Source: Candidatus Methylomirabilales bacterium
GTDB taxonomy: Bacteria > Methylomirabilota > Methylomirabilia > Methylomirabilales > 2-02-FULL-66-22
Assembly: GCA_044451055.1 (NCBI GenBank)
Contig: JBIOJT010000001.1
Location: 1-41,158 of the forward strand
DNA length: 41,158 nt
Reading direction: 5' to 3'
Shown: positions 21,295 to 38,557 of the stretch, in pieces
Layout: every line of letters begins with the position of its first letter
Numbering within the stretch: position 1 is the first letter of the stretch
Notes under the pieces: generated by a model
Database searches by the model: none
The model's input: the letters and a program-made list of their open reading frames with translations, nothing else
Told to the model about the DNA's origin: nothing
Translations under genes and position numbers: made by a program

Positions 21295-22754
21295 CGCCGG
21301 AGTTCCTGCACGACCTGCCCGGTCGCATCGCGGATGGACACGATCAGCGGCATCTCGCCGGGAAGCGAGTGGGTCGCGCAGCCATGGCACGGGTCGTAGG
21401 CCCGGAACGCCATCTCGATCATGTTCAAGAGGCCGTCGTCCACCTTCCCTTCATGGATGAGGCCCTTGGCGCTCTTCTCCACGCCCATCGCCATCCGCGC
21501 GGAGTTCCCCTGGGTCGCCACAATCAGATTGGCCTTCTTGATCAGACCCTTTTCGTCAGTCTCGTAGTGATGGAAAAGGGTCCCACGCGGGGCCTCGACC
21601 ACACCGATGCCCACCTTGGGCGTGGTCGTCGGGATCGTCCGGATGTTCTTGCCCGTGATGTCGGGAGCGTTCACCAGTTCCCGCATCCGCTCGGCGGCGT
21701 ACAGCATCTCGATGACCCGCGCCCAGTGGTTGGCGAGCGTGAAGTGCACAGGCTTTCCGCCGAGCGTGGCGAAGTATTCCTCGTACGCCTTCTGGGCCTC
21801 CGGGGTGGCCATCCCGTCCGCCGCGTTCAGGCGCGCCAACGGCGCCACGGAATAGATGCCGCTCTCAGGCCCGTCAATGAAGCCCTTCCAGCCGAGCGCC
21901 TTCAGGTAGCAGAACTTCACGTAGCTCCACGGCTCCACGTGCTCGGCGATATTGGCGAGGTAATGATCTGCGGGAAAACTGGTGAATTCCTTGCCGAGGG
22001 GATCCACCACCCGGATCTTCCCGTCGTAGAAATTCACCTTATTCTTCTCATCCACCATTCCCATGTAGTACGTCTTGTGGGTGTAGGTATCCGACGTGAC
22101 GAGCTTCACGTACTCGGGGTTCTTGAGGACGATGTCCTTGAACACCTGCAGCGTGAAGCGGGCGAACTCAAGACCATCTTCCGCCAGCTGCTTGAAGCCG
22201 GGCAGGTCCGCTGGATTCAGACCCTTGGAGACCCCTCCCGGCAGGCCCAGAACGGGGTGGATCACCTTCCCGCCGAAGTACGCAATCAACTCACGGAGCC
22301 GGCGGCGCATAGAAATAACCTTCTTGCCGACGTCCACGCCGACTTTTTGAATCACCCCCACGACGTTCCGCAACTCCTTGGGAGCCGTGGGTCCGACGAT
22401 GAAGTCGGGCCCTCCGAGGATGTACACGTGGAGGGCGTGATCCTCCAGCATGAAGGTGTTGTACACCAGCTCGCGGATCTTCTTCGCGGTCGGCGGCGGC
22501 TCGACATCGTAGAGGTCGTCCAGGGCCTTGGTCCCCGCCATGTGGTGGGCCGTAGGGCAGACCCCGCAGATCCGGCTCGTGATCTGGGGCATGTCCTCGG
22601 CCGGCCGGCCGATGCTGAAGATTTCGAAGCCGCGCAGCTCGGGGACCTGGAAATATGCGCGCTCCACCTCGCCCTTGGCATCCAGGAAGATGTCGATCTT
22701 GCCGTGGCCTTCCAGGCGGGTGATCGGGTCAATGGTGATAGTTCGCGTCTGCAT
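21291..22754 (-). CDS. mvhA: Cytoplasmic [NiFe] hydrogenase large subunit, Mvh/group-3-like (module 1)
   Basis: 487 aa. N-terminal RICGVCPTAH and C-terminal DPCHGCATH Ni-Fe ligand motifs, followed by a cleavable ~25-aa tail. AGGAGG RBS. Confidence 0.95.
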   Translation of the reverse strand: MQTRTITIDPITRLEGHGKIDIFLDAKGEVERAYFQVPELRGFEIFSIGRPAEDMPQITSRICGVCPTAHHMAGTKALDDLYDVEPPPTAKKIRELVYNTFMLEDHALHVYILGGPDFIVGPTAPKELRNVVGVIQKVGVDVGKKVISMRRRLRELIAYFGGKVIHPVLGLPGGVSKGLNPADLPGFKQLAEDGLEFARFTLQVFKDIVLKNPEYVKLVTSDTYTHKTYYMGMVDEKNKVNFYDGKIRVVDPLGKEFTSFPADHYLANIAEHVEPWSYVKFCYLKALGWKGFIDGPESGIYSVAPLARLNAADGMATPEAQKAYEEYFATLGGKPVHFTLANHWARVIEMLYAAERMRELVNAPDITGKNIRTIPTTTPKVGIGVVEAPRGTLFHHYETDEKGLIKKANLIVATQGNSARMAMGVEKSAKGLIHEGKVDDGLLNMIEMAFRAYDPCHGCATHSLPGEMPLIVSIRDATGQVVQELRR

Positions 22755-23748
22755 CGGTGGTCGCCTCCTTTGCCTCAGGCTGCCGGCCCACGCAGGCGCG
22801 GAGCAGGGAAGCCGCTAGGCCATACCGGTAGAACGTCCCCACCGGATCCGGAATCGTGGCGAGTGTCGCGTCAATCTCCTTCTCGTCGGTGGCGGTGAGA
22901 TTGGAGCAGAGCGAGGACATGAACTTCGCGCCCTGATCCTTGACCCGCGACGTGGGACCGAAGCAGCCGGAGCAGGGCATGTTCCCCCGAACGCAGAGTG
23001 CCTCGCAGCCGCCGCGGGTCGCCGGGCCCAGGCACAGGAATCCCTGGGCCAGGAGGCATTTCTCCGGATCCACCTCGGAGGTGTGGGGTCGCTTGAATGT
23101 CGAGAAGGACAGATCCGTCGGCTTGGTCTCTTTGCGCGGGCATTCTTCGCACAGAGCGATATCCGGGGCGAGGACGCTTCCCTTGGGCGGCGCCGTGCCC
23201 GAAAGCAGCGCGGTGAGCGCCTGCTGGAGGAGCTTCGGCGTCGGCGGACAGCCGGGCAGATAGTAATCCACCGGGATCACCTGGTCCAGCGTGCGCACGA
23301 TCTTCCAGAGTCCGGGAAGCGTGGCGGTCCGGCCGTTGTCCTGAAACCGCCGCGTGGGGTACGCCTTTTCGGCGTTCTGCGTGGAAGGGGATTCCTCGTA
23401 CACGAACTTCAGGATCTGCTCTCGACCGAACTGGTTGGCCAAGCTCGGGATCCCGCCGAGTTGGGCGCAGGCGCCGTAGGCGATGACCAGTTGACTCTTC
23501 CGGCGGAGCATACGAACCATCTCCTCCTGCTCCGTGCTGCGGATGGCGCCATTGATCAGGCTCACGAGGATTGAGCCGTCGGCCATGGCTTCGACGTCGC
23601 TCCGCTTGAAATCCATGGCCACCGGCCAAAAGATGATGTCCACGGCCTCCACGACGCCGAGGATGCCCTCGGCCAGGTCCACCACGGATTCCTCGCAGCC
23701 CCCGCAGGAGGCGCACCAGTAGAACGCAACCTTCGGCTTATCCAGCAT
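22729..23748 (-). CDS. mvhG: [NiFe] hydrogenase small subunit, Mvh/group-3-like (module 1)
   Basis: 339 aa. FYWCASCGGCEES proximal-cluster motif, no Tat signal, further Cys clusters (CLGPATRGGCEALC, CSGCFGP). Confidence 0.9.
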   Translation of the reverse strand: MLDKPKVAFYWCASCGGCEESVVDLAEGILGVVEAVDIIFWPVAMDFKRSDVEAMADGSILVSLINGAIRSTEQEEMVRMLRRKSQLVIAYGACAQLGGIPSLANQFGREQILKFVYEESPSTQNAEKAYPTRRFQDNGRTATLPGLWKIVRTLDQVIPVDYYLPGCPPTPKLLQQALTALLSGTAPPKGSVLAPDIALCEECPRKETKPTDLSFSTFKRPHTSEVDPEKCLLAQGFLCLGPATRGGCEALCVRGNMPCSGCFGPTSRVKDQGAKFMSSLCSNLTATDEKEIDATLATIPDPVGTFYRYGLAASLLRACVGRQPEAKEATTDADANYHH

Positions 23749-24274
23749 GGGTGCCGACCTCCTCCAGCTCTGCTTCGACTGCGTGCTGCAGGGGCTCCAT
23801 CTCCTGGTCCCATTCCCGGAACCGCTGGGGCAGGCCCAAGGGGCCGAGGGCCCGGACCTTCTCCACCATGTCGTTGATGACCAGCTTCACCTTCTCCCCC
23901 TCGGAGGCCGAAATCCACTCGAGACGGAAGCGATCGTCCTGGATGCCCATCCCTTGCAGGATGCGGCGGAGCATCTGGACACGCCGGATGGCCTTGTAGT
24001 TCCCTTCGACGTAGTGGCAGTCGCCGATGTGGCAGCCGCCAATGAGCACCCCGTCGGCGCCTTTGGCAAATGCGTCCAGGACGAACTGCGGGTCCACGCG
24101 CCCGGAGCACATGACCCGGATGATACGCACGTTGGGGGCATGCTTCATGCGGGAAACCCCGGCGAGATCCGCAGCGGTGTACGTGCACCAATTACAGAAA
24201 AACGCCACGATGCGCGGCTCCCATCTCGCCGGGGTCCCGTCCCCGTTATCTGGTGTTTGAATCGGCAGAGACAC
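23738..24274 (-). CDS. mvhD: MvhD/FlpD-type hydrogenase iron-sulfur subunit (module 1)
   Basis: 178 aa. FFCNWCTY...VMCSGRVD...GCHIGDCHY is the MvhD/FlpD signature. Confidence 0.9.
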   Translation of the reverse strand: MSLPIQTPDNGDGTPARWEPRIVAFFCNWCTYTAADLAGVSRMKHAPNVRIIRVMCSGRVDPQFVLDAFAKGADGVLIGGCHIGDCHYVEGNYKAIRRVQMLRRILQGMGIQDDRFRLEWISASEGEKVKLVINDMVEKVRALGPLGLPQRFREWDQEMEPLQHAVEAELEEVGTHAG

Positions 24275-24289
24275 GGTTTTTTGCCTCCC

Positions 24290-26299
24290 TTATGAGACCT
24301 GGGCCAATTCCGAGAGCAGCCCGTCGATCTCGCTGAAGATCTGTTCGTCCTCGAAGAGATTTTGCCGGATCGAGCCCGACGGACAGGCCGCCACGCAGGT
24401 GCCGCAGCCCTTGCACAGGGCCTCGTTGATGGCGGCCTTCTTCTTCTCTTCGGAGAACGTGATGGCACTATAGGGGCAGAGGGGGACGCAGGACTTGCAT
24501 CCGGAGCAATCCTCTTCGACGATGTAGGCGGTGTTCGGCTCCAGCTCCACGTGGCCGATGTCGATGAGGGCCAAGGCCTCGGCCGCCGCCGCGCCCGCCT
24601 GCGCCACGGCATCGGGGATATCGCGGGGACCCTGGCAGGCCCCGGCGATGAAGATGCCGTCCGTGAAGGTGTTCACGGGCGCGAGCTTGGGATGCCGCTC
24701 CAGGAAGAATCCCTCCGTGGAGCAGGAGATGTTGAAGAGGCGCCGGACCTCCTGGGCGTCGGCGCGGGGCTCGAGGCCCACCGCGAGGATCACCATGTCC
24801 AGGGGGATGCGGCGGACCGTCCCCACGAGCGTGTCTTCCACGCGGACCACCAGCTTCCCTTCTTCCTCGGGAGTCCGCGCCCAGTCGGTCACCTCGGCCA
24901 CGCGACCCCGGATGAAGTGGACGCCCTCCTTGAGCAGCTTGTCGTAGAACTCCTCGTAGCTCTTCCCGGGGGTCCGTATGTCGATGTAGAAGTTATAGAG
25001 CTTTGCGTCCGTGTGCTCCTTGACCAGATGAGCGAGTTTCAGGGAATACATGCAGCAAACCCGGGAGCACCACCGATTGGTCTTCTCGTCGCGGGAACCG
25101 ACGCAGTGGATGATCCCCACCGCCTTGGGCTTCCGGCCATCCCGCAGGACGACGTCCCCCCCCGTGGGTCCGGAGGCGTTGATGAGGCGTTCGACCTCCA
25201 GCGCAGTGTAGACGTTGGGGTAGATCCCGTATCCGTAGTAGGGAACGCGGGTGGCGTCGAAAGGCTGGAAGCCCGTGGCCAGGATGACCGTGCCCACCTC
25301 GATCTCTTCCGTCTCTGCTACCTGCTTGAAATCGATGGCCTTGCGATCGCAGGCCTCGACGCAGCTCTGCTTGCACTTGCCGGACTTCAGCTGGATGCAG
25401 GTGTCGGGGTCGAAGAGGACGAGCTGTGGGGTCGCCTGGGGAAACGGGATGTAGACCGGCTTGCGCTTGCTCAGGCCCTGGTTGAACTCGTCCGGGAAGC
25501 GGCCGTCCTTGTAGATGCAAGCGGTCACGCATTCCATGCAACCGACGCACAGCTCCTCGTTGATGTAGCGGGGCTTGCGCCGGACCTTGACCTTGAAGTT
25601 CCCCACGTACCCATCCACCTGGGCCACCTCGGAGTAGGTCCAGAGGGTGATGTTCGGGTGGGTCCTCACCGCCGACATCTTGGGGGTGAGGATGCAGGCG
25701 GCGCAATCCAGCGTGGGGAAGGTCTTGTCGAACATGGCCATGTGGCCACCGATGGTGGGCTCCCGCTCCACCAGGTAGACCTTCTTCCCGGCGTTGGCCA
25801 AGGTCAAGGCCGCGTGGATGCCCGCGATGCCGCCTCCGACCACCAAGACCTTGGGGTTGATGGGGACCTGCTTGCGCTCCAGGGCCTTGTGGAAGCCCAC
25901 CCGGTAGACAGCCGCGCGGATCAGGTCCTTCGCCTTCTCGGTGGCGGCCTGCTTGTCCTGATTCACCCACGAGACGTTCTCGCGGATGTTCACCATCTGG
26001 AGAAAATATGGGTTCAACCCACCCTGGGCTATCGCCTGCCGGAAGGTGTGTTCGTGGAGCAGAGGGGAGCACGACGCCACGATGATGCGGTCGAGCCGGT
26101 GATCCCGGATGTCCTGCTGGATCAACTCCTGGCCCGGGTCGGAGCACATGTACTTGTATTCGCGCGATACGACCACGCCATGGAGTCTGGCGGCGTACTC
26201 GGCCACCGCCTTGACGTCCACGACGCCAGCGATATTCGTCCCGCAATGGCAGACGTACACGCCGATGCGGGGGGTGCCGTTTCCGGTGAAGTCAGGCAT
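24290..26299 (-). CDS. hdrA: Heterodisulfide reductase subunit A (full-length HdrA flavoprotein)
   Basis: 669 aa from MPDFTG (AGGAGG RBS). N-terminal CHCG...C...C domain, GGGIAG FAD motif, FPTLDCAAC, inserted and C-terminal 2x[4Fe-4S] ferredoxin motifs, CVGSRD...CSRVCC. Confidence 0.95.
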   Translation of the reverse strand: MPDFTGNGTPRIGVYVCHCGTNIAGVVDVKAVAEYAARLHGVVVSREYKYMCSDPGQELIQQDIRDHRLDRIIVASCSPLLHEHTFRQAIAQGGLNPYFLQMVNIRENVSWVNQDKQAATEKAKDLIRAAVYRVGFHKALERKQVPINPKVLVVGGGIAGIHAALTLANAGKKVYLVEREPTIGGHMAMFDKTFPTLDCAACILTPKMSAVRTHPNITLWTYSEVAQVDGYVGNFKVKVRRKPRYINEELCVGCMECVTACIYKDGRFPDEFNQGLSKRKPVYIPFPQATPQLVLFDPDTCIQLKSGKCKQSCVEACDRKAIDFKQVAETEEIEVGTVILATGFQPFDATRVPYYGYGIYPNVYTALEVERLINASGPTGGDVVLRDGRKPKAVGIIHCVGSRDEKTNRWCSRVCCMYSLKLAHLVKEHTDAKLYNFYIDIRTPGKSYEEFYDKLLKEGVHFIRGRVAEVTDWARTPEEEGKLVVRVEDTLVGTVRRIPLDMVILAVGLEPRADAQEVRRLFNISCSTEGFFLERHPKLAPVNTFTDGIFIAGACQGPRDIPDAVAQAGAAAAEALALIDIGHVELEPNTAYIVEEDCSGCKSCVPLCPYSAITFSEEKKKAAINEALCKGCGTCVAACPSGSIRQNLFEDEQIFSEIDGLLSELAQVS

Positions 26300-27203
26300 G
26301 AACAGGTTGACCTCCTTGATGGCGGGCGAAGGCCGGCTCGGGCGACACGAACAGCCGCCGCATGCCGAGCGCCGCATCCGGGATGCCGAAGGCCTTGCCC
26401 ATGAGCTGGGTCAGATACAGGACCGGAATTCGGGTAGTATCTCGGAAGGTGCGTACGATCTCTTCCTGGTAGCATTCCAGGTTGAACTGGCAGAGGGGGC
26501 ACACGGTGATCACCACCTCGGCCCCGCGCTGGGCGGCGTCCCTGAGGAGGATCTGGCTCAGGCGCAGGCCCACGTCATGGATGGTGCCGGTCAGGGTTCC
26601 CCCGCAGCAGCGCGTCTTCAGTGGCCAGGGAATCGGCTTCGCATCCAGGGCCTCCACGAGGCGGTCCATGCTGGTGGGGTTGTGGGCCGAGTCGAAGGTG
26701 GCAAAGGGGCGCACCACCTGGCAGCCGTAGTAGCAGGCGACCTTCAGCCCGTCGAGGGAGCGTTTCATGGCTTTCCTGATCCGCGAAATGCCGATGTCGT
26801 TGACGAAGACGTCCAAGGGGTGGCGGACCTGGACAGCCCCCTGGTAATCAAGGCCGATCGCCCGGAGCCCGGCGTGGACCTGGCGGGCGAGATCCTGGTG
26901 CTGCTTGACGTAGCGCTGGGTTTTCGTCAATACCAGGAAGCAGGCGCTGCACGGTGCCACCAGCTGCGGCGCGCCCTTCTCGGGGGACTGGCGGGAGGCT
27001 TGCTCGGCCAGCGCCAGGTTCCGCGCCGCCAGACTGAAGGCTTGGGCCTCATCGATCGACATGTAGGAGGTCGCCCCGCAGCAGTTCCAGTCTTCGAGCT
27101 CCCAGAGGGGGGTGTCCAGCTCCCGGAACACGGCGAGGAGCGACTGCTCGTAGGGGCCGCCATTGCTCTTGAGGGAGCAGCCCGGATAGTACCAATAGCT
27201 CAT
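26292..27203 (-). CDS. hdrB: Heterodisulfide reductase subunit B (two CCG domains)
   Basis: 303 aa from MSYWYYPGC. Two CCG motifs (NCCGAT, RCCGGT) with partner cysteines. Start overlaps the hdrC stop (ATGA). Confidence 0.9.
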   Translation of the reverse strand: MSYWYYPGCSLKSNGGPYEQSLLAVFRELDTPLWELEDWNCCGATSYMSIDEAQAFSLAARNLALAEQASRQSPEKGAPQLVAPCSACFLVLTKTQRYVKQHQDLARQVHAGLRAIGLDYQGAVQVRHPLDVFVNDIGISRIRKAMKRSLDGLKVACYYGCQVVRPFATFDSAHNPTSMDRLVEALDAKPIPWPLKTRCCGGTLTGTIHDVGLRLSQILLRDAAQRGAEVVITVCPLCQFNLECYQEEIVRTFRDTTRIPVLYLTQLMGKAFGIPDAALGMRRLFVSPEPAFARHQGGQPVHA

Positions 27204-27847
27204 GGCGCGCTCTCCTCCGCCGCCTTGGCTGCACGCAGCAGCGTGCGAATGGTGTCCCGCTGTCGCGTCTGCTCCCGCCGGAGCGAGAGTCGGCCGGTGC
27301 GCCAGAGACGCCAGGCGACGGGCGCATTCTGGAGCATCCGCAGCGGGTTCGTCTTCAGGAAGAATCTGAGCATGATGGGCAGCTCGTTGCTGCGGCCGCC
27401 GCGTTCGACACCCCGGAAGAACTCGCGCGCCAGCACGGGGATGGAAAAGCGGCTCGGGTAGACGCCCTGGGACATGGCCTCCTGCTTCAAGGCGTACATC
27501 ACGTCGGTGATCTTGATCTCCCGAGGGCAGTCGACCGTGCAGGCGTAGCAGGAGGCGCACAGCCAGATGCTGACACAGTGTAGGACCTCATCGCGGAACC
27601 CTTCCCGGATCATGGCGATGATCTTCCGGGGGGTGTAGTCCATGTAGTGGCTGACCGGGCAGGTCCCGCTGCAGGTTCCACACTGGATGCAAGAGAATAG
27701 CTTCTCTCCGTACGCCTTGCGGGCAATGCGCTCGCCGAATCCCGGGTCAAGCTCTGATTCGTAGGCGATGTGCCGCCGAATATCCCTCGGTCCGGGAATC
27801 CGTTGGACCGGACGGGAGAAATCCCCACCGGTCATTCGCTTCAGCAT
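27200..27847 (-). CDS. hdrC: Heterodisulfide reductase subunit C (2x[4Fe-4S])
   Basis: 215 aa. CIQCGTCSGTCP and CASCYACTVDCP motifs. AGGAGG RBS. Confidence 0.9.
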   Translation of the reverse strand: MLKRMTGGDFSRPVQRIPGPRDIRRHIAYESELDPGFGERIARKAYGEKLFSCIQCGTCSGTCPVSHYMDYTPRKIIAMIREGFRDEVLHCVSIWLCASCYACTVDCPREIKITDVMYALKQEAMSQGVYPSRFSIPVLAREFFRGVERGGRSNELPIMLRFFLKTNPLRMLQNAPVAWRLWRTGRLSLRREQTRQRDTIRTLLRAAKAAEESAP

Positions 27848-27939: not shown

Positions 27940-28151
27940 CCCACGCGCAGACCCGTGCCGTCGCCTGGGAGTGGAGTGGTTTTGCCTGTCCGTTCCTCGT
28001 GCCTGTCCAGGCGACCGCACGAGTCCGCGGACGCTTCCCCTCATTTCCTGGTCCATTCTAGGTACGAGGGGATGGAGTGCAACGAAATAAGGGGGAATGT
28101 CCGTTCCCGCAATCATCTGGGAAAACGAACAGCAGCAGTCGTCGAGGGCGA

Positions 28152-28182
28152 GGGGGTGAGGCCCGCGGGGCCTCTGCCCCCC
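28152..28182 (-). terminator. GC-rich stem-loop downstream of the QmoC-like gene (end of the module 2 operon)
   Basis: The minus strand reads GGGGGGCAGAGGCCCCGCGGGCCTCACCCCC, with GAGGCCC/GGGCCTC and flanking G5/C5 pairing. It starts ~30 nt after the stop. There is no immediate U-tract. Confidence 0.4.
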
Positions 28183-28212
28183 GAATCGGTCCGTGTGGCG
28201 CATAGAATTGGC

Positions 28213-29376
28213 CTACGCTGGGAGAGGCGGAGCCGCCTTCACGCGGGTGGCGTGAGGCTCGCGGGCGCGGGCCTGCACCGCCGAGAGGTAAATGGCCAGC
28301 GGGCGGTAGAGCATGTGGGCCCACTTACCGAAAGGCACCTCAATCGCCAGCATGGGGACGGCGACCATGAGATGGACCAGATACATGACGTAGGTGGGCA
28401 TGGGCAAGTCGAGCAGCCGGAAGAGGTGGAGCGAGATGCCGGTCAGGCTGGTGAGGAGCAGAAGGCCGACGAACAGCCAGTCGGCGAGGTCGCTGTCCTT
28501 ATGGATCTGGTCCTTCTTCTCCAAGCGGTCGCGGATGATCCAGAGAGTGGTCCCGAGCAGGACCAGGGTGGCGTAGTAGCCGAGCAGGCTCGTCCAGTGG
28601 AACGAAGCGTCCTCGACCTGGAACCAGTACAGGAAGACCACCACCAGAAGGAACATCGTCCCGTAGCCGCTCACCAGGGCCAAGTGACGCAGCCAGTGCT
28701 TGGTATTGTCGGTTGCGCACTCCCGCCAGCGTTTTTGCGTGACGGCGTGCAGGATCAACTCCTTCAGCTCGATCAGGTACGCGGTGAGCGGGACGGGGTG
28801 ACTCTTCCGCATGGCATAGTAGGCCATCCGTGCGGCATTGCTGAGGAGCAGCCCCGCCAGGAACACCGCCATGGTGATGTCCCCCCAGTGGACGATCCCC
28901 TTGGGGGCGAAGTAGGCCAGGTTCACGGCCTGCAGCGCCTCGGGGTGTTTGGCTAGCAAGCGAAAGCCGAAACTCTCCGGGAGAGTGAAGAGCCCCAGCA
29001 CCACGAGGGCCACGATGGCCAACATGCCCAGCTCCCAGCCCTCCTTCCGATACATCAGGCGGCTCAGGCCGGTCCAGTCGTACATGCTGATGAGCCAGCG
29101 CCGGCTGGCCATCATGAGTTTGCCTGGCTTCGCCTCGCGGGGGCAGGTGTCGGAGCAGTCGCCGCAGTAGTAACAGAGCCACGGATCGACGGACTCCAAC
29201 ATCTTCCCCTTCAGCCCGAGCTGCGTGTACCGGATGTACCGCCGTGGAAACACGGTGTCTTCTTTGGAGAGGGAGCAGACGGCCGTGCAGTTCCCGCAAT
29301 TGAAGCACTTGGTGACCGTATCCCCGCCGTATTTGGCAAGCTCCGAGACCACCTCGGTATCGACGCGGACGCTCAT
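28213..29376 (-). CDS. QmoC-like membrane protein: N-terminal HdrC-like 2x[4Fe-4S] domain fused to an HdrE/NarI-like multi-helix (putative heme b) domain
   Basis: 387 aa. CFNCGNCTAVC and CYYCGDCSDTCP motifs, then ~6 hydrophobic helices with conserved-looking His residues (HWGD, HAV, HLALV, HLF, HLMV). Start overlaps the upstream stop (ATGA). Confidence 0.75.
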   Translation of the reverse strand: MSVRVDTEVVSELAKYGGDTVTKCFNCGNCTAVCSLSKEDTVFPRRYIRYTQLGLKGKMLESVDPWLCYYCGDCSDTCPREAKPGKLMMASRRWLISMYDWTGLSRLMYRKEGWELGMLAIVALVVLGLFTLPESFGFRLLAKHPEALQAVNLAYFAPKGIVHWGDITMAVFLAGLLLSNAARMAYYAMRKSHPVPLTAYLIELKELILHAVTQKRWRECATDNTKHWLRHLALVSGYGTMFLLVVVFLYWFQVEDASFHWTSLLGYYATLVLLGTTLWIIRDRLEKKDQIHKDSDLADWLFVGLLLLTSLTGISLHLFRLLDLPMPTYVMYLVHLMVAVPMLAIEVPFGKWAHMLYRPLAIYLSAVQARAREPHATRVKAAPPLPA

Positions 29377-29669
29377 CGCTCTGACTCCTTCATGGCGTAG
29401 CGGAAGTAGTCACCCGCCTGCCCGGCTTCAACAATCTCGCCGTACCGCTTCAGTGCCATGACGTACCACGTGACCTTCTCGCCGGGAAGGTTGAGCTGCT
29501 GGGTGAGCTCCGGGATCGTCTTGGGACCGAATCGGAGGGCCTCCCGCACGGCCTTGCGCGCTTCTCGGTCGGATTTGAGATAGCTCTTCTTGGCGTCGGT
29601 CAGGCCCCCCATCCGCTCGCGGAAGACCCGGAGCGCCTCGCGCCACTGCAACCGTTTTGTCCCGTTCAT
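29373..29669 (-). CDS. 98-aa basic protein with a winged-helix-like segment, function unknown
   Basis: ...GPKTIPELTQQLNLPGEKVTWYVMALKRYGEIVE... resembles a wHTH. It is translationally coupled to the QmoC-like gene. Confidence 0.5.
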   Translation of the reverse strand: MNGTKRLQWREALRVFRERMGGLTDAKKSYLKSDREARKAVREALRFGPKTIPELTQQLNLPGEKVTWYVMALKRYGEIVEAGQAGDYFRYAMKESER

Positions 29670-29695
29670 GGCTCTCCCCTGCGGCTGCGGATCCG

Positions 29696-31021
29696 TTACA
29701 CGCGATGGCCGCTCCCCGTGACGGCCGCCTGACCAACCCTTGTCCGATCCAAGTACATCGCCGCCTCCATGGCGGAGGCGCCCGCCTCGACGATGGCGTC
29801 CGGAATGTCCTTTGGCCCCGTGGCCACGCCGGCGAGGAAGATTCCATCACACGTGCTCCTCGCTGGCAGCGTGGCCAACTCGGGCACTTCGAAGAACCCG
29901 TCTCTGGCCTCGTCGATGGGGATGACGCCCGCGGCGTGCCAGGCGGGGATCAGGCCTTGGCTCAGGACCACGAGTTCGTGCTGGATATCCGCCACCCGAC
30001 CGCCCTCGTCGATCAGCTCCACCCGGACGATGAGGTCCCGATTCTTCGTCTCGGTGATCTTCGCCACTTTGGCCTTGACCACCCGGATGCCCTCCGCCAT
30101 GGCGCGCCGGTAGAACTGCTCGTAGCCCTTGCCGAAGGCCCGGATGTCCATGTGATAGATCGTGACCTCGGTGTCGTGCAGCTGGTGCTTGATCATGACG
30201 GCCTGCTTGAGGGCGTACATGCAGCAGACCCGGGAGCAGTAGGGCACGCCGATTGAGGCGTCGCGGCTCCCGGCGCACTGGACGTAGGCCACCGACTTGG
30301 GCACCTTGCCGTCCGAGGGCCGGAGGACGTGGCCGTAGGGCCCGTTGGAGGACTGGACGCGCTCCATGGCCAGCGGGTTCATGACGTTGACGTACTTGTC
30401 CCCGCCGTATTCCTTCTTCGCGCCCATGGGCGTGATGTGCAGGCCGCTGGCCACGATCACCGCGCCCACGTCCACCGTCCGCTCCTCTGCCTGCTGCGTG
30501 AAGTCGATGCAGTCCCGGGGGCAGACCTTGGCGCAGTTGCCGTCGAAGACGCAGAACTCGGGGTCCAGGACCGCCACCTGGGGGATGGCGTTGGCGTGGG
30601 GGATGTAGATGGCCCGCCGGGCCCCCAGCCCCTGGTCGAACTCGTGGGGGACGTACACGTCGCAGGCCAGCTCGCACAGGCTGCAGCCGATGCAATCTTC
30701 CTCTACCACGTAGCGCGGCTTCTTGAGGAGGCCGATGCGGAAGCCGGGGTTCAGCGGCTCCACCTTCTGCACCTCGGTGTAGGTGAGCAGCGTGATGCGC
30801 TGGTGGTGGGCCACCTCGGCCATCCGGGGGGTACAGATGCAGCTACTGCAGTCGAGGGTGGGGAAGACCTTGTTCAATCCCACCATGACTCCCCCGATGG
30901 ACGGCTGTCGCTCGACCAGGAGCACCTGGAACCCCTGACCGGCCAAGTCGAGCGCCGCCTGCATGCCTGCGATCCCGCCGCCGATCACCAGCCCGTCGTA
31001 GCGATCTTTCATCTCCGCCAT
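29696..31021 (-). CDS. Short HdrA/QmoA-like FAD flavoprotein; lacks the N-terminal Cys domain and the C-terminal ferredoxin domain
   Basis: 441 aa. GGGIAG at residue ~13, FPTLDCSSC, an inserted ferredoxin (CIGCSLCELAC ... CAKVCP), CAGSRD...CSRVCC. The protein ends just after GPKDIPDAIVEAGASAMEAA. Confidence 0.85.
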   Translation of the reverse strand: MAEMKDRYDGLVIGGGIAGMQAALDLAGQGFQVLLVERQPSIGGVMVGLNKVFPTLDCSSCICTPRMAEVAHHQRITLLTYTEVQKVEPLNPGFRIGLLKKPRYVVEEDCIGCSLCELACDVYVPHEFDQGLGARRAIYIPHANAIPQVAVLDPEFCVFDGNCAKVCPRDCIDFTQQAEERTVDVGAVIVASGLHITPMGAKKEYGGDKYVNVMNPLAMERVQSSNGPYGHVLRPSDGKVPKSVAYVQCAGSRDASIGVPYCSRVCCMYALKQAVMIKHQLHDTEVTIYHMDIRAFGKGYEQFYRRAMAEGIRVVKAKVAKITETKNRDLIVRVELIDEGGRVADIQHELVVLSQGLIPAWHAAGVIPIDEARDGFFEVPELATLPARSTCDGIFLAGVATGPKDIPDAIVEAGASAMEAAMYLDRTRVGQAAVTGSGHRV

Positions 31022-31065
31022 GGTGCGACCTCTCTCCGGTTAGTCGTGGGCCTCTCCGGGGGCGA

Positions 31066-32579
31066 TCAGTCCCGCCGCCGCTCGTCGAGGATGGTCCCGT
31101 CCACGTCCCGCACCCGCACGATCAAGGCCATCTGTCCGGGCAGGCTGTGGGTGGCGCATCCGAAGCACGGGTCGTAAGCGCGGAAGGCCATCTCGACCAT
31201 GTTGAGCACGCCCTCCGTGACCGCCACGCCCTTCTTGATCAGGCCCTGGGCGGCCTGCTTGATGGACATGCAGATGGCGGCGTGGTTGTTGGTGGTGCCC
31301 ACGATCAGGTTGGCCTTCTTCACGATGCCCCGCTCGTCCGTGACGTAGTGGTGGGTGAGCGTGCCCCGCGGAGCCTCTACGACGCCCACGCCCTCGTTGG
31401 GCGTCTTGTCGCAGACCGCCCGGTACTTCTCGGGGTGGGTGATCTCGGGGTGACGGACCAGCTCCAGGGCATGCTCGGCCGCGTTCAGCAGCTCGATCAC
31501 GCGCGCCCGTGAATGGCGAGGGTGTGGTGGACCGGTTTCTTGCCGCTCTTGTCCCCGGTCAGCGTCTCGAAGTACTCCTCGTAGGCCGCCTGCGCCAGCG
31601 GGCTGTTCATGCCGTCGGCCACGTTGAGCCGCGACTGCGGGGTGGCGCGGTAGACGCCCGAAGCCTTGCCGTCCACGAACCCCTTCCAGCCCACGTTCTT
31701 CAGGTAGGGGAACTTGAGGTAGCTCCACGGCTCGACCCGCTCCGCGATGTGCTGGACGTACTCGGAGGGGGCGTACTTGCACAGCTCCTGACCGTCCGGG
31801 TCCACTACACGCACCTTACCGTCGTAGAAATTCACCCGGTTCCGGTCGTCCACCAGGCCCATGGAGTACGTCTCGTGGCGATAGGGGCCGTTCAGGATCA
31901 GCTCCACGTATTCCTTGTTGGAGAGCACCACATCATGGAAGAGCTTCAGGGTGAACTTCCCGAACTCCACCATGAAGCGGCAGATCTCGTCCAGGCGGTT
32001 GCGCTCCTCGGCCGTGAGAGGCTTGCTCATGCCCCCCGGGATGGCGTTGGCGGGGTTCACCGGCTTGCCGCCGAAGATGCCGGCCGCCTCGTGGCCCCAG
32101 GCGCGGCACTTGATCACCTCGCCGCCGATCTGGAGCCCCACCTTGCCGATCACCCCGATCAGGTTGCGCAGGGCCGGATCGCTCTGCGGGCCCATCACGA
32201 AGTCCGGCGCGCCCAGGGCGTAGAAGTGGGTGGTGTGGTCGGTCACGTAGAAGATGTTGTACTGCAGCTCGCGCAGGAGCTTGGCCGTGAGCGGCAGCTC
32301 GACGCCGTAGACGGCGTCGCAGGCCTTGGCGGAGGCCATCATGTGAGCCTCCGGGCAGACCCCGCAGATGCGGGGCGTGATGCGGGGGAGCTCCTCGACG
32401 GGCCGCCCCTCGCAGAACTTCTCGAATCCCCGTAATTCCGGGACCTGGAAGAAGCAGTCGGCGACGTTGCCATCCGCGTCGAGAAAGATGTCGATCTTCC
32501 CGTGGCCCTCCAGCCGGGTCACCGGGTCGATGCTGATCCGTCGGAATCCTTCTGCCGTCTTAGCGTGCGGACTGGTCAT
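31066..32579 (-). pseudogene. mvhA: Mvh/group-3-like [NiFe] hydrogenase large subunit (module 2), with an apparent 1-nt deletion near 31506-31511
   Basis: ORF 31497-32579 carries RICGVCPEAH and runs to ...KPVHHTLAIHGRA*. Homology resumes in another frame (ORF 31066-31782) at RVIELLNAAEH... through DPCFGCATH plus tail. Module 1 reads FTLANHWARVIEML across the same point. Confidence 0.85.
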
Positions 32580-32595
32580 GCTGGCCCTCTCCTTC

Positions 32596-33564
32596 TCACT
32601 GCGCCGCTTTCATGAAGCTCGAGGACATGCTGAATCGGTAGAAGGTCCCGGTTGGATCCGCGATCTGTGCGACCATCTCCTGCGCCCGGTCTTCGCTCTG
32701 GGCGTCCAGCAAGGCGCCCAGGGCGCCGATCATGGACGTGCCCTGATCCTCGGCGTTGGCCGGCGGGCCATAGCACCCCTCGCACCGCATGCCCGCCTTG
32801 AGGCACAGCGCACCGCACCCGCTGCGGGTGGCAGGCCCCATACACAGGATGCCCTGCTCCAGCAGGCACCAGCCGGGCTCGGGCCGGAACTCGTGGTGCC
32901 GCTTGAACTGCTTGATCTTGGTGAGCTTCTTTTCGAGCGCGCACTCGTCGCACACGGTCTTCCCCGTGCAGCCGACCTTCACCGCCGCATTGCGAGGAGG
33001 GACCGCCCCTGTGACGACCGCCTGGATGGATTCCCAGACGCGGTCGGCCTGAGGGGGGCACCCCGGAATCTCATAGTCCACGGGGACGATGTCTTTCAGG
33101 CGCAGCACGCCGGGATAGAACGTGGGGATCTCGAGTGCCCCCACGGGCGTCTCGACGCTCGGCTGGGGCTCCACCCCGTCCCGGTTGTCGAGGGAGGGAT
33201 TGGTATGGTAGACCACGTCGTAGATCTCCGCCCGGCTCTTCAGGTTGGCCAGGGCCGGGATCCCACCCTCGGCCGCGCAGGCCCCGTAGCCGATGAGGGT
33301 CTTGCTCTTCTTCCGGAGCAACCGGGCGACCTCTTCCTGCTCACTGTTCCGGACGCCGCCGTTGTAGAAACAGACATCCATGTACCCGTCCGGGTAGTGG
33401 GCGACGTCCTGGTACTTGAAGTCGGCCGCGCAGGGCCAGAAGACCACGTCGGCAACCTTGATCAGGTCGAGCAGGCGGGGGCCGATCTCCAACAGCGAGA
33501 TGTCGCAGCCGCCGCAGCTACAGGCCCAGTACATGCCGACCTTGAGCTTCCCGTTGGTACCCAT
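32596..33564 (-). CDS. mvhG: [NiFe] hydrogenase small subunit, Mvh/group-3-like (module 2)
   Basis: 322 aa. MYWACSCGGCDIS proximal-cluster motif, no Tat signal. CMGPATRSGCGALC and CEGCYGP. Confidence 0.9.
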   Translation of the reverse strand: MGTNGKLKVGMYWACSCGGCDISLLEIGPRLLDLIKVADVVFWPCAADFKYQDVAHYPDGYMDVCFYNGGVRNSEQEEVARLLRKKSKTLIGYGACAAEGGIPALANLKSRAEIYDVVYHTNPSLDNRDGVEPQPSVETPVGALEIPTFYPGVLRLKDIVPVDYEIPGCPPQADRVWESIQAVVTGAVPPRNAAVKVGCTGKTVCDECALEKKLTKIKQFKRHHEFRPEPGWCLLEQGILCMGPATRSGCGALCLKAGMRCEGCYGPPANAEDQGTSMIGALGALLDAQSEDRAQEMVAQIADPTGTFYRFSMSSSFMKAAQ

Positions 33565-33567
33565 TCG

Positions 33568-34098
33568 CTATTCTCCCCACGCCTTGAGACCCATGCCGTG
33601 CCCCACGCCGCGCTCGTGCAGGAGTTGCGGCCAGTTCAACGGACCGATCTCCCGGACTTGTTCCGTGATCTCGGCGACCAGCTTGCTGAACTTCTCCCCC
33701 TCCGCGGCACTGACCCATTCGTGCCGGAAGCGCTCCGGCTCGATGCCGAGGTCCTCGAGTATCCGACGCATCAGTGGCATGCGAACCATGGTCTTATGAT
33801 TGCCGGAGATGTAATGGCAGTCGCCGATGTGGCACCCCAGGACCATCACACCGTCGGCGCCGTTGGCGAAGGCCGTGGTGATCAGCTCCGGATCGATCCG
33901 CCCCGAACACATCACCTTGATGATGTCCACATTGGGGGGATATTTCATCCGCGCCGTGCCGGCGCTATCCGCCCCGGTGTAGGAGCACCAGTAGCAGAGG
34001 AAGCCGATGATGCGCGGCTCCCATGTGGCGGGTGTCGCCTGCGGCTGTTGGCGTGCGGTGGCAACGTCGACCATGGCAGATCTCCCGTTAGGCGGCAA
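33568..34098 (-). CDS. mvhD: MvhD/FlpD-type iron-sulfur subunit (module 2)
   Basis: 176 aa. FLCYWCSY...VMCSGRID...GCHIGDCHY. An alternative start is MVDV at 34074. Confidence 0.9.
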   Translation of the reverse strand: MPPNGRSAMVDVATARQQPQATPATWEPRIIGFLCYWCSYTGADSAGTARMKYPPNVDIIKVMCSGRIDPELITTAFANGADGVMVLGCHIGDCHYISGNHKTMVRMPLMRRILEDLGIEPERFRHEWVSAAEGEKFSKLVAEITEQVREIGPLNWPQLLHERGVGHGMGLKAWGE

Positions 34099-36127
34099 CG
34101 GCCGCCAGTTGCTTGCCGAGCAGGGCCAGGACCTCGGATTTCACCTCCTGGTCCGTGAAGCCGAACTGGGTGATGGCGTTGCAGGGACAGGTGGCCACGC
34201 AGGTGCCGCAGCCGGTACAGACGGCCTCATTGATGGTCGCGACCCGCTTCGCGTCGTCGCGCGCGATGGCCTCGTAGGGGCAGACGCTCAGGCAGATCCG
34301 GCACCCGCTGCACAGCTCTTCCGTGACCCGGGCAACGAAGGGGTCGAGTTCGATGCTGCCCTGGCTGATCAGGGCCGACGCCTTGGCGGCCGCTGCGGCG
34401 GCGCCGGCCGAGGACTCCACGGTATCCATTGGCCCCTGGACCGAGCCCGCCAGCAACAGACCGAAGGCTGCAAGTTCCACCGGCCGGAGCTTGGGGTGCA
34501 CCTCCAGAAGGAACCGGTCCGGTCCCACCGCGCAGCGGAGGAGATCCACCAGCCTGGTCATATCCCCGGCCACCAGCCCCGTGGCGAGGACCAGCATGTC
34601 CAGGGGGACCTCGATCTCCTCCCCGAATGTGAGCCGGTCGACCGTCCGGACCACGAGCGGGGCGTGGCCACGGGGGTCCCGCTCCACCTGGGGGGGCCGC
34701 AGTGGGTTGAAGCGAACGAAGGCGACGCCCTGTTCGCTGGCCCGGCTGTAGTAGTCCTCGTGCCACCGGCCGTAGGTCCGGATGTCTTCGTGAAAGTCGA
34801 AGACGTGCAAGTCGGGGTAGCGGGCCTTCAACTCGGTTTCCGCGTGGAGGCAGGCCGTGCAACAGACGCGGCTGCAGTAATCGTTGAGTTTTCCGTTGGG
34901 CGTGGGGGTATGAATTCCCTTTTGCTGCATGGAACCCACGCAGTGCATGAAGCCGATGCTTCGAACCGGCTTGCCGTTGAGGACGAGCTTGCCGCCGGTG
35001 GGCCCTTCCGCGTCCAGCAGCCGGTTGAGTTGGGCGAGGGTAATGACCTCTCGAAACTGTCCGAAGCCGTATTCTCCCGTCCGCGGCCGGTAGAGATCGA
35101 GCCCCACGGCGATCAGGATGACGCCGGACTGGATCTCAATCTCGCGCGGCGCCTCCGCGAGATTGATGCCGCGGCCGCCGACCGCCTCCAGGCACTTCCC
35201 ACACTTGGTGCACGCCTTCCAGTCGATGGCCGGGTAAGGGGGGTAGCAGCCCTGGTAGGGAAGGTAGATGGCCTTCCGTTTGGTGAGTCCGAAGTTGTGC
35301 TCGTTGTCCGTCGTCTCGGGGCAGACGTCGATCGCGGCCTGGACGTTTCTCACCCCGAATTCGACCCCCCGGGAGTGGAGCCGTATGGCGGTTCGGAAGT
35401 CCCCGATGAAGCCGGTGGACTGGATCATCTCCGCGTTGGTGTAGATGGTGATCTTCGGGTTGTTGACCACCGCGTCCATCACCGGGCGAAGGAGTTCGCG
35501 CGCCTGCCGCCCGGTGGGAAAGAGGCCGGCGAGGCGCGGCATGCGGCCGCCGAGGAACGGGCTGGATTCGATCAGAGTGACCGCGATGCCGCGAGCGGCC
35601 AGATCCCGTGCCGCGGTGAGGCCGGCAATCCCCCCGCCGATCACCAGAGCAGAGGGGTGGATGGGGATGACCCGCTTCTGCAGCGGGGCCAAATGCGGCA
35701 CGCGGGCCACGGAGGCGCTGACCAGCCGGATGGCCTTCTGGGTGGCCAACTCCTTGTCCTCCACCACCCAGGAAACCTGCTCGCGAATGTTGGTGTGTTC
35801 GTAGAGGTATTGGTTCAGGCCCGCGCGGCCGAGCGTGCGCCGGAACGTCAATTCGTGCAGGCTGGGGGAGCAGGCGGCCACGATGACGCGGTTGAGGTTC
35901 AGTTCCTTGATCTTCTGCTCGATGAGTGCCTGGCCGGGATCGGAGCAGATGAACATGTGTGTGGTGGAGAAGACGACCCGGGGCAATCGACCGATCTCCT
36001 CTGCCACTCGCTGCACATCCACGACGTCGGAGATGTTGCCACCGCAATGACAGATAAAGACTCCGATGCGTGGGTCCTCCCCGCCGCCGTTACCCGAACT
36101 CTGTGCCTGCATGCTGTGCTCGCTCAT
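34088..36127 (-). CDS. hdrA: Divergent HdrA-like flavoprotein (module 2)
   Basis: 679 aa from MSEHSMQ (GGGAGAGGTGG upstream). N-terminal CHCG...C...C domain, GGGIAG, CSRVCC, and a C-terminal 2x[4Fe-4S] domain (CSGCRICLSVCP, CTGCGTCVATCP). Several cluster motifs are degenerate. Confidence 0.9.
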   Translation of the reverse strand: MSEHSMQAQSSGNGGGEDPRIGVFICHCGGNISDVVDVQRVAEEIGRLPRVVFSTTHMFICSDPGQALIEQKIKELNLNRVIVAACSPSLHELTFRRTLGRAGLNQYLYEHTNIREQVSWVVEDKELATQKAIRLVSASVARVPHLAPLQKRVIPIHPSALVIGGGIAGLTAARDLAARGIAVTLIESSPFLGGRMPRLAGLFPTGRQARELLRPVMDAVVNNPKITIYTNAEMIQSTGFIGDFRTAIRLHSRGVEFGVRNVQAAIDVCPETTDNEHNFGLTKRKAIYLPYQGCYPPYPAIDWKACTKCGKCLEAVGGRGINLAEAPREIEIQSGVILIAVGLDLYRPRTGEYGFGQFREVITLAQLNRLLDAEGPTGGKLVLNGKPVRSIGFMHCVGSMQQKGIHTPTPNGKLNDYCSRVCCTACLHAETELKARYPDLHVFDFHEDIRTYGRWHEDYYSRASEQGVAFVRFNPLRPPQVERDPRGHAPLVVRTVDRLTFGEEIEVPLDMLVLATGLVAGDMTRLVDLLRCAVGPDRFLLEVHPKLRPVELAAFGLLLAGSVQGPMDTVESSAGAAAAAAKASALISQGSIELDPFVARVTEELCSGCRICLSVCPYEAIARDDAKRVATINEAVCTGCGTCVATCPCNAITQFGFTDQEVKSEVLALLGKQLAAVAA

Positions 36128-37319: not shown

Positions 37320-38213
37320 CTAGGCCGGGTTAGCATTTGCGGAATTCGATGCGGTCTGTCCCTTCTCTCGCCGGCAGCGTTCATCGAGGTAAGTGTACCA
37401 GCGAGACATCCCCTGACCCGTCCGAGCTGACACTTCGAGGATCGTGGCCGCAGGAGCGACCCGGCGGATGTTCCGGAGGGCCGCGTCGCGGTCGAAGCCG
37501 ACGGCCTCGGCGATGTCCATCTTGTTCACCACGACCACCTGGGCGGTCCTGAACATGACGGGGTACTTCAGGGGCTTGTCCTCCCCCTCGGTAACCGACA
37601 ACAGCACCACGCGCAAGTCCTCTCCCAGATCATACGAGGCAGGGCAGACCAGGTTTCCCACGTTCTCAATGACAAGAACATCCAGAGTGTCGAGGGGCAG
37701 CTGCTCCATCGCCCGGGCCACCATCTCTGCCTCGAGGTGGCAGACGTTTCCCGTGGTGATCTGCACGGTCGGGACCCCCCGAGCGCGCAACCGCTTCGCA
37801 TCGTTGTCGGTCTCGAGGTCTCCCGCGATCACGCCGGCGTGCAGGCGATCCCCGAGGTCCGTGACTGTTCGCTCGATGAACGCGGTCTTGCCGGAGCCCG
37901 GGGAAGACAGCACGTTCAGCACGAGGAGGTGCTTCGCCTTGAAGTAGCCCCGGTTCCGCTCGGCCAGTCGATCGTTCTTGTCCAGGATCGCCTGGTGGAC
38001 GGGCACGGTGCGCCGGTCGCCCTCGTGCACGTCCTCATGCGGATGAGGGTGGGGATGGGGATGGTCGTGCGGATGGGCGTGATCATGGTCACCACCCCCT
38101 TGGTGCCCGTGGCTGGGGGGCTGCAATCCGGCCAGGCCCGCCGAGTCGTGCGGGTCCGGCCTTCCGTCAATGCGAACCTCTCCGACGATATTGCATCCGC
38201 AATCCTTACACAC
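37320..38213 (-). CDS. hypB: Hydrogenase nickel incorporation GTPase HypB with a His-rich linker
   Basis: GTG start gives MCKDCGC (canonical CxxCGC). His/Pro-rich tract. GSGKT P-loop, [13 protein letters not shown]. The track ORF extends to 38300 without support. Confidence 0.95.
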
Positions 38214-38215
38214 GG

Positions 38216-38557
38216 CTAGGATACCTCCAGAGATGCCAGTTCGAGTTCCCGTCCCTGGTGCACCTCCGCGCTGGGGTTGTGGCACCGGGGACACTCGCAA
38301 AAGAGGTCATCCGGCTGAAACTCGAGGCGGCATGTCGCGCAGTAACAGATGATCGGGATGTGTTGCACCTCGAGCGTCGCGCCTTCCGCAATCGTCCCTC
38401 GCGTCAGCACATCGAAGGCGAATTCCAGGGCCTCAGGGACCACCCCGGACAGTGGACCGATGCGCATCGTCAACCGGTGGATCCGGCCTGCCCTCTCCTG
38501 AGCCGCCTGCTTCAAGGCAATGGCCAGCGTATTCTCCATTATGCCGACTTCGTGCAT
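38216..38557 (-). CDS. hypA: Hydrogenase nickel insertion protein HypA
   Basis: 113 aa. MHE N-terminus and CATC...CPRC zinc site. The stop lies 2 nt before the hypB start. Confidence 0.95.

Follow-up and report, generated by a model that had tools for sequence, protein, structure and literature searches.

Group 3c [NiFe] hydrogenases are common in non-methanogenic bacteria that lack the heterodisulfide CoM-S-S-CoB, and what serves as their electron acceptor in these bacteria is an open question. For the Qmo complex, a hydrogenase has been proposed as co-donor, with no gene linkage between the two (Ramos et al., 2012), and a 'type II' Qmo, with QmoA and QmoB closer to HdrA and with or without Apr/Dsr, has been described with its function stated to be unknown (Neukirchen et al., 2023; PMC10504309). 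Membrane-associated bifurcation is described for EtfABCX/FixABCX, in which menaquinone is the high-potential acceptor that drives ferredoxin reduction (PMC10734219). Here, we analyze a contig of 41,158 bp (hereafter 'the window') from a metagenome-assembled genome (MAG) of a Candidatus Methylomirabilales bacterium (NC10/Methylomirabilota), and in it a seven-gene operon, hdrA1-mvhD1-mvhG1-mvhA1-sHdrA-X98-qmoC, in which genes for an Mvh-type hydrogenase stand together with genes for a Qmo-type core. We propose, with a probability of roughly 50%, that the operon encodes one membrane-bound complex, in which the Qmo-type core would receive its electron input from the Mvh hydrogenase and which would act as a bifurcating, reversible H2:menaquinone/ferredoxin oxidoreductase.

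Conservation of the seven-gene order

All seven minus-strand open reading frames (ORFs) that a reading of the sequence alone had placed between 36127 and 28213 are present at the coordinates it gave (Table 1). Because the window has a G+C content of ~65%, long spurious ORFs are common in it; gene identities reported here rest on profile matches and orthologues, not on ORF length. Loci were compared by tblastn with all window proteins, and in a scan across GTDB species, with one genome for each, at least 580 genomes had a QmoC relative; the best 80 of these were analyzed. We distinguish four locus types. Type I has the order hdrA1-mvhD-mvhG-mvhA-sHdrA-X98-qmoC, usually followed by hycI, and is found in 24 of the 80 genomes. 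Type II has the order MvhD-like-sHdrA-hdrA1-X98-qmoC with no hydrogenase, and is found in Planctomycetota, Chloroflexota and some Deltaproteobacteria. Type III is the canonical qmoABC flanked by aprBA and sat, mostly in Acidobacteriota and also in some Ignavibacteriales, Bacteroidota and Kryptoniota MAGs. Type IV, in Desulfobacterales, has a QmoC-like domain fused to an HdrD-like C-terminal half.

The hosts of type I comprise NC10/Methylomirabilales, Solibacteraceae, Bryobacterales, Thermoanaerobaculaceae, Holophagae and other Acidobacteriota, one Geobacteraceae MAG and a few proteobacterial MAGs with doubtful labels; the order is found, further, in locus L001 and on two megabase long-read contigs, L084 and L085, and in total recurs in at least 25 species-level MAGs. 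The expectation that the gene order would be conserved in relatives is therefore borne out, in several phyla, and the seven-gene arrangement is far beyond chance. In L085, an IS110-family transposase gene (7079-8023) lies between mvhA and sHdrA in a type I operon that is otherwise intact. A locus of the Elusimicrobia genome GWA2_69_24 (L071:1790-9259) has the order qmoC-qmoA-qmoB/mvhD-mvhG-mvhA, without X98, and represents a second way of joining a QmoC-type gene to a [NiFe] hydrogenase; we count it in favor of the proposed complex. In a rough neighbor-joining tree, the apr-linked QmoC proteins form one clade and those of types I and II are interleaved, which suggests that the hydrogenase module has been gained or lost more than once, on a tree too rough for event counts.

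No CCG protein is encoded between 36127 and 28213, in agreement with the sequence-only reading, which had found no hdrB in the operon and had pointed to a neighboring paralogous module that retains soluble HdrBC; that module is present as a complete hdrCBA-mvhDGA set. Only four NC10 genomes (the window, L001, L008 and L020) have HdrB beside the type I module, whereas the NC10 loci L002 and L007, the loci L084 and L085, and all Acidobacteriota type I loci have no hdrBC nearby and continue from qmoC to hycI. Because most type I loci stand without hdrBC, we conclude that the seven-gene set is an evolutionary unit and that the Mvh-Hdr module is a lineage-specific neighbor.

The apr and sat genes bear on the alternative that the complex serves a soluble acceptor encoded elsewhere, for example adenosine 5'-phosphosulfate (APS) reductase, with H2 and menaquinol as confurcating co-donors. 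QmoC relatives in the same tree serve AprAB, Rokubacteria have been reported with apr, sat and qmo genes (PMC6018805), the quinol oxidation usual for QmoC-type proteins would fit, and Ramos et al. (2012) had listed a hydrogenase among possible Qmo co-donors on the analogy of MvhADG. However, tblastn with AprA, AprB and Sat found no match in the window, confirming what had been read there, and in the locus set gave 22 loci, all of type III or unclassified loci without hdrA-like neighbors (L028, L042, L048), and none beside loci of types I, II or IV. Moreover, the operon encodes no acceptor-binding subunit, the apr-linked QmoC proteins form a clade of their own, and only hycI and hyp genes were found as conserved flanks of type I in a clustering of flank ORFs made noisy by antisense ORFs and high G+C. 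We consider delivery to a soluble acceptor unlikely.

Subunits and predicted electron path

The two HdrA-type flavoproteins of the operon were aligned to HdrA of 5ODC, to HdrA2 of the neighboring module, and to QmoA and QmoB (residue numbers are those of 5ODC), and a survey of residues in orthologues from loci of types I and II took in 26 HdrA1 and 32 sHdrA proteins. In HdrA, Lys409 is 3.4 Å from N5 of the bifurcating flavin adenine dinucleotide (FAD; PMC10734219), a Cys/Sec197 pair has been proposed as a relay beside the FAD (PMC13518236), and cluster HA4 starts the high-potential branch while clusters HA5 and HA6, in an inserted domain, pass the low-potential electron to ferredoxin or polyferredoxin (PMC12350162). 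HdrA1 orthologues keep the N-terminal cluster domain (25-26 of 26 for each Cys), the HA4 cysteines (386, 399, 403 and 404; 26/26) and the C-terminal two-cluster ferredoxin domain; the Cys194/Cys197 pair is found in 0/26, the inserted ferredoxin domain retains one cluster (Cys256 with 293/296/299), and Lys409 is found in 1/26, replaced by His in 19, Arg in 4 and Gln in 2. sHdrA, in contrast, matches the HdrA2 model at positions 139-570 alone (HdrA residues about 143-570) and thus has neither terminal domain, but the HA4 cysteines, the Cys194/Cys197 pair and Lys409 are each present in 32/32, and the inserted domain has all eight cluster ligands, with Cys296 replaced by Asp in nine.

The window proteins follow the same division. 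HdrA1 retains both terminal domains (the N-terminal cluster domain and the C-terminal 2x[4Fe-4S] domain) along with the FAD motif and the HA4 CC motif, and lacks Cys194/Cys197, Lys409 and one of the two inserted-domain clusters; sHdrA has seven Cys and one Asp in the inserted domain; and the neighboring HdrA2 has all features (six clusters, Cys194/197 and Lys409). Judged by these residues, the two flavoproteins are degenerate in complementary ways: HdrA1 appears to be the hydrogenase-docking arm, and sHdrA appears to be the bifurcating core with a ferredoxin exit, and is likely a bifurcating flavoprotein. We infer that the two would form a heterodimer. QmoB and QmoA encoded in the aprB-aprA-x-qmoA-qmoB-qmoC-sat cluster of L036 show the same trend taken further, with QmoB lacking the inserted domain and having MvhD fused to it. 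sHdrA has the same architecture as L036 QmoA, and HdrA1 and MvhD1 are jointly, by domain content, a split QmoB; the QmoA-like and QmoB-like assignments made from the sequence alone therefore hold. The complementary losses constitute a natural dissection of the HdrA dimer, and predict a half with the bifurcating flavin and a half for docking only.

The three hydrogenase subunits have as closest solved structures MvhA, MvhG and MvhD of the Mvh-Hdr complex 5ODC. MvhD1 matches Pfam FlpD (E 3e-53) and PDB chain 5ODC_D (E 9e-53), with conserved Cys; MvhG1 matches the VhuG model (E 4e-62) and 5ODC_E (E 2e-58); and MvhA1 matches the VhuA model (E 2e-84 and 1e-21 for its two pieces) and 5ODC_F (E 8e-111). 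Conservation extends to the cluster cysteines and to both Cys motifs of the [NiFe] site (RICGVCxxxH and DPCxxCxxH, here DPCFGC, in MvhA1). These matches uphold the description of the hydrogenase as Mvh-type, and on them it is assigned to group 3c. The absence of a twin-arginine translocation (Tat) signal from MvhG1 implies that the hydrogenase is cytoplasmic.

In the deposited sequence, mvhA1 is split by a 1-nt deletion: near 31506, a T is lost from CAC-TGG, at the Trp codon in the HWAR motif. Taken at face value, this deletion would make the module a dead remnant in this organism. However, only this contig has the deletion, and four relatives have the site intact; with the T restored, mvhA1 is collinear with the intact 504-amino-acid L001 orthologue and has no further stops; and comparison with L001 gives a ratio of nonsynonymous to synonymous substitution rates (dN/dS) of 0.12 upstream and 0.16 downstream of the frameshift, so that both halves are under purifying selection. 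No other gene of the module is broken, and one further conserved gene of the window, dctQM (3700-5621, plus strand; a fused tripartite ATP-independent periplasmic transporter), is frameshifted too, with a break near 4800-4830: ORF 3700-4893 covers DctM profile positions 1-157, and ORF 4227-5621 covers positions 155-413. With the deletion confined to one contig, selection acting on both halves, and another conserved gene broken as well, the mvhA1 deletion is likely an assembly indel error, or at most a very recent lesion in the population. The evidence of selection and assembly led us to drop the dead-remnant reading as very unlikely, and the frameshift does not have the consequence that had been feared for it. 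In a separate case, the NC10 genome MFD10007.bin.2.127 (L020), nearly all genes of both modules are returned by tblastn in two or three pieces, a pattern that is typical of uncorrected long-read indels and calls for caution with pseudogene calls in these MAGs.

The last gene of the operon had been read as encoding a QmoC-like membrane protein. Its product matches NCBIfam qmoC (NF038018) over model positions 2-358 of 360, has six predicted transmembrane helices and is 56% identical to QmoC of L036, and it carries two CxxCxxCxxxC motifs (Cys 24/27/30/34 and 68/71/74/78), for two HdrC-like [4Fe-4S] clusters, in an Fe-S domain that matches HdrC chains in PDB (E about 1e-11). We therefore class it as QmoC at the family level, in accord with the earlier assignment. 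In an alignment of 82 QmoC relatives, the eight cluster Cys, Cys220, His231, His335 and His354 are invariant or nearly so, and His260, His292 and His317 are mostly conserved; Cys220, the eight cluster Cys and the His pattern are common to apr-linked QmoC. The pattern provides three His per membrane face, which would be enough for two putative bis-His hemes b. Loops rich in Lys and Arg place the Fe-S domain and loops 186-228 and 284-296 in the cytoplasm, as read from the sequence; since the hydrogenase has no signal, it and the Fe-S domain would be on the same, cytoplasmic, side of the membrane.

The small protein encoded directly 5' of qmoC, X98, had been described as winged-helix-like, and its AlphaFold2 model (predicted local distance difference test score, pLDDT, 83) is indeed a winged helix, for which HlyU, SqrR, CzrA and SmtB are weak matches (template-modelling score ~0.58, E ~3e-3). 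X98 has no Pfam match, helix-turn-helix (HTH) families included, even at E 10, and no NCBIfam match. The family comprises 394 clusters at 50% identity with E <= 1e-3 and 177 with E <= 1e-10; among the matches listed, nearly all relatives are free-standing proteins of about 60-170 amino acids, most of them 90-135. No type I or type II locus is without X98, which always lies directly 5' of qmoC; its stop codon is -4 to +20 nt from the qmoC start in 37/37 loci, with a 4-nt overlap in 18. We reject a classical metal- or thiol-sensing ArsR regulator for X98, which contains neither Cys nor His and has no Pfam HTH match; several type II loci do have true ArsR genes nearby, as separate genes that match Pfam HTH_5. 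DsrD, also a winged-helix protein, acts on DsrAB and not on DNA. By analogy with DsrD, X98 probably serves as a small subunit, with a role in structure or assembly, that is co-translated with QmoC.

The proposed complex would have three evident terminals: the [NiFe] site, the QmoC quinone site and the ferredoxin-type exit of sHdrA. H2 would be split at the [NiFe] site of MvhA, and electrons would pass through three MvhG clusters to the [2Fe-2S] cluster of MvhD, which would dock on the N- and C-terminal arm domains of HdrA1. HdrA1, paired with sHdrA much as HdrA is paired with itself in the methanogen homodimer, would pass electrons to the sHdrA FAD, where, with Lys409 at N5 and Cys194/Cys197, bifurcation would take place. 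The high-potential electron would move from the HA4-type cluster through the two HdrC-like clusters of QmoC and the hemes b to menaquinone, and ferredoxin would take up the low-potential electron by way of the inserted ferredoxin domain of sHdrA. The reaction would be reversible, yielding H2 from quinol and reduced ferredoxin when H2 pressure is low. Published potentials (H2, -414 mV; menaquinone, -74 mV; ferredoxin, ~-450 mV; heterodisulfide, -140 mV; PMC10734219) make one coherent three-way reaction of H2, menaquinone and ferredoxin: that is, bifurcation, or confurcation in reverse.

A simpler possibility is a plain, non-bifurcating H2:quinone oxidoreductase, or a quinol-driven producer of H2, in which the flavoproteins serve as wires and ferredoxin takes no part. 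Only two substrate sites, [NiFe] and quinone, are evident if one counts in this way, and electron transfer from H2 to menaquinone, being strongly exergonic, would proceed uncoupled. However, sHdrA keeps Lys409, the Cys pair and both inserted-domain clusters throughout the surveyed orthologues, features on which a mere wire would place no constraint and which have decayed in HdrA1; we consider non-bifurcating transfer improbable. The complementary residues of the flavoproteins make bifurcation among H2, quinone and ferredoxin the more plausible mechanism.

Several points weigh against the bifurcating complex. QmoC, HdrE and NarI-type proteins usually oxidize quinol. Quinone reduction at a site on the periplasmic side would oppose the membrane potential; the branch from H2 to quinone nevertheless has about 340 mV to spare. 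Ferredoxin is an assumed partner. The NF038018 score, 204.8 bits, is below the curated cut-off of 300 bits, which marks the membrane protein as a homologue and not an equivalog, and its AlphaFold model has a pLDDT of 64, with best PDB folds, NarI and mycobacterial EtfD, that are of the kind to be expected for such a protein but are not significant (E >= 0.13). X98 could be a mere regulator, hdrCB follow qmoC on the same strand in NC10 genomes and could be co-transcribed with it, and mvhA1 is split in the window. Finally, no cultured host was found: the best 120 relatives of the QmoC proteins of the window and of the Geobacteraceae MAG all come from metagenomes or MAGs, and the only cultured organism among the loci, Desulfospira joergensenii, has the type IV architecture.

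All parts of the operon belong to known families; as far as we have seen, the combination, the X98 subunit and the flavoprotein pair with split functions are new, and we found no published description of an mvh-qmo operon in a full-text literature that mostly excludes subscription papers, in which an earlier mention is possible. The operon suggests the quinone pool as an acceptor for group 3c hydrogenases in the MAGs of Acidobacteriota, Methylomirabilota/NC10 and Geobacteraceae in which it recurs, and it bears on the unsettled mechanism of Qmo, since the hydrogenase co-donor of the hypothesis of Ramos et al. (2012) is here genetically joined to it. We raise, more tentatively than the complex itself, the possibility of a new class of respiratory hydrogenase: a membrane-bound group 3c enzyme that bifurcates electrons from H2 to menaquinone and ferredoxin, or in reverse vents H2, with an obligate heterodimer of complementary HdrA paralogues, widespread in soil Acidobacteriota and Methylomirabilota. 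If reduced ferredoxin is indeed obtained from H2 together with respiration, models of H2 use and of the supply of low-potential electrons in abundant uncultured soil phyla would change. The value for bioenergetics is solid, but would be greater with a host in culture.

Organization of the hydrogenase island and related loci

The operon is part of a minus-strand hydrogenase island in which hypAB, the seven-gene module, a second Mvh-Hdr module, two hycI genes, a Flavin_Reduct gene and hypFCDE follow one another (Table 1).

Table 1. Coordinates of the seven-gene operon and its surroundings in the window.
Feature	Position	Strand	Description
hypA	38216..38557	-	nickel-insertion gene, upstream of operon
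hypB	37320..38300	-	nickel-insertion gene, just upstream of operon
hdrA1	34088..36127	-	long HdrA-like flavoprotein, 679 aa, functionally QmoB-like
mvhD1	33568..34074	-	[2Fe-2S] MvhD subunit, separate gene, 168 aa from ATG; TTG opens ORF at 34098
mvhG1	32596..33564	-	[NiFe] small subunit, Mvh/Vhu type, without signal peptide motif
mvhA1	31066..32579	-	group 3c [NiFe] large subunit (assigned by homology); in two ORFs, 32579-31497 and 31782-31066
sHdrA	29696..31021	-	short HdrA core, 441 aa, QmoA-like architecture, without N- and C-terminal domains
X98	29373..29669	-	98 aa, predicted winged helix of ArsR/SmtB-like fold, no Pfam/NCBIfam match
qmoC-like gene	28213..29376	-	387 aa, HdrC-like 2x[4Fe-4S] domain and six predicted transmembrane helices
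hairpin	28149..28183	-	G+C-rich, 3' of qmoC, no T tract
second module hdrC-hdrB-hdrA2-mvhD2-mvhG2-mvhA2	21291..27847	-	canonical soluble Mvh-Hdr set
hycI (proximal)	about 20800-21390	-	maturation protease, follows mvhA2
hycI (distal)	20172..20723	-	hydrogenase maturation protease
flavin-reductase-like gene	19565..20227	-	Pfam Flavin_Reduct
hypF, hypC, hypD, hypE	11724..16692	-	hyp genes of hydrogenase island

The junctions in the operon are largely as first read: the gaps of 3, 16, 44 and 26 nt and the ATGA overlap stand, but the 11-nt overlap between hdrA1 and mvhD1 requires a TTG start. MvhD orthologues have 168 amino acids, so the ATG at 34074 is probably the true start, which leaves a gap of 13 nt. 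A stem-loop after the last gene, read as the end of the operon, does exist (~28183-28149); as a terminator it is poorly supported, since it is not better than shuffled sequence (z = -1.5), is shortened in L001 and is only partly conserved. A scan of the window for terminators and promoters returned 11 sites against 9.7 expected in shuffles and was not used to set operon limits. Conservation of gene order is much stronger evidence for the operon than the stem-loop.

The intergenic element AGATGATTGCGGGAACGGACATTCCCCCTTATTTCGTTGCAC (28078-28118, minus strand) lies between qmoC and hdrC, is common to the four two-module NC10 loci and is followed in the window by promoter-like TTGCAC-N16-TAGAAT before hdrC; an Rfam scan of the window gave no matches, this element included. 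The region is a possible candidate for an independent promoter or operator of hdrCBA-mvhDGA. It bears on the alternative that the two modules are one co-transcribed system sharing the disulfide site of HdrBC. The modules are on the same strand, with hdrC and hdrB (27847-26292) beginning 365 nt downstream of the qmoC-like gene and no convincing terminator between, and they are adjacent in all four of those NC10 genomes; yet most type I loci run straight to hycI without hdrBC, promoter-like sequence in a conserved element precedes hdrC, and the second module has its own HdrA, its own MvhDGA and a second hycI. We regard a shared system as distinctly improbable.

The two tandem hycI genes share only 31% identity. 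Genomes without the second module have a hycI immediately after qmoC; the distal gene of the window is its orthologue and probably encodes the maturation protease of MvhA1, so that each hydrogenase seems to have its own protease. A Flavin_Reduct gene follows hycI in NC10 loci L001, L002 and L007 as well. Elsewhere in the window, one plus-strand ORF of 561 amino acids (6805-8490) contains Cyclase (residues 4-165) and PdxA (263-554) domains, and may be a true fusion or a reading-frame artefact.

Among related loci, the type II loci L019, L024, L050, L057, L062, L072 and L077 often have ArsR-family regulators nearby, several type II loci have a gene for a DsrE-like sulfur carrier, and L057 has a pyridine nucleotide-disulfide oxidoreductase; these neighbors hint at a sulfur-related role for the type II variant. 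Type IV loci are found among L058-L083, for example in Desulfospira joergensenii DSM 10085 (L074:10001-12307), where the QmoC-like protein has ~765 amino acids. The C-terminal half of the type IV protein carries a further CxxCxxCxxxC pair and CCG-type motifs, and split HdrA, HdrL-like and MvhD genes adjoin; the fusion is probably the 'HdrF' of the D. autotrophicum genome paper. In an archaeal methanotroph MAG, Candidatus Methanoperedens sp. (L065:10001-17222), a QmoC relative with 48% identity is followed by several HdrA-like and MvhD genes.

Comparison with known systems

The operon resembles QmoABC in its membrane subunit, an HdrC-like 2x[4Fe-4S] domain fused to a multi-helix domain, and in having two HdrA-derived flavoproteins, the long one of which, like QmoB, has lost the Cys pair and goes with an MvhD module. 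It differs from QmoABC in that genes for a [NiFe] hydrogenase (MvhG and MvhA) lie inside it, in that every type I locus has MvhD as a gene of its own and not as a domain of QmoB, in that HdrA1 keeps a one-cluster remnant of the inserted domain of which canonical QmoB has none, in that an extra protein, X98, is encoded before QmoC (gene order B-D-G-A-A'-X-C), and in that linkage to aprBA/sat is absent and the qmoC score is below the NCBI cut-off. Compared with the 'type II' Qmo of Neukirchen et al. (2023), by its description, the HdrA-like character of QmoA and QmoB is alike; linkage to a hydrogenase is not mentioned in the main text of PMC10504309.

VhtAGC with HdrDE of Methanosarcina likewise ties H2 oxidation to a membrane quinone-like carrier and an HdrE-type cytochrome b, but divides the task between two enzymes, has its hydrogenase in the periplasm, and lacks both an HdrA flavoprotein and bifurcation. 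EtfABCX/FixABCX would be the functional analogue, with H2 here in the place of NADH (reduced nicotinamide adenine dinucleotide) as donor; it bears no relation to the present operon in sequence or fold and has no cytochrome b subunit.

The closest solved homologues of the hydrogenase subunits come from the MvhADG-HdrABC complex of methanogens (5ODC), with which the operon shares HdrA-type flavoproteins with the HA4 CC motif and the predicted logic, in which H2 is the donor at mid potential and ferredoxin the acceptor at low potential. Unlike that complex, it encodes no HdrB (the CCG protein with non-cubane clusters) and no free HdrC, and has QmoC instead, from which it follows that quinone, and not a disulfide, is likely the high-potential acceptor. 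Two complementary, partly degenerate paralogues would replace the HdrA homodimer of the methanogen enzyme, and the complex as a whole would be membrane-bound.

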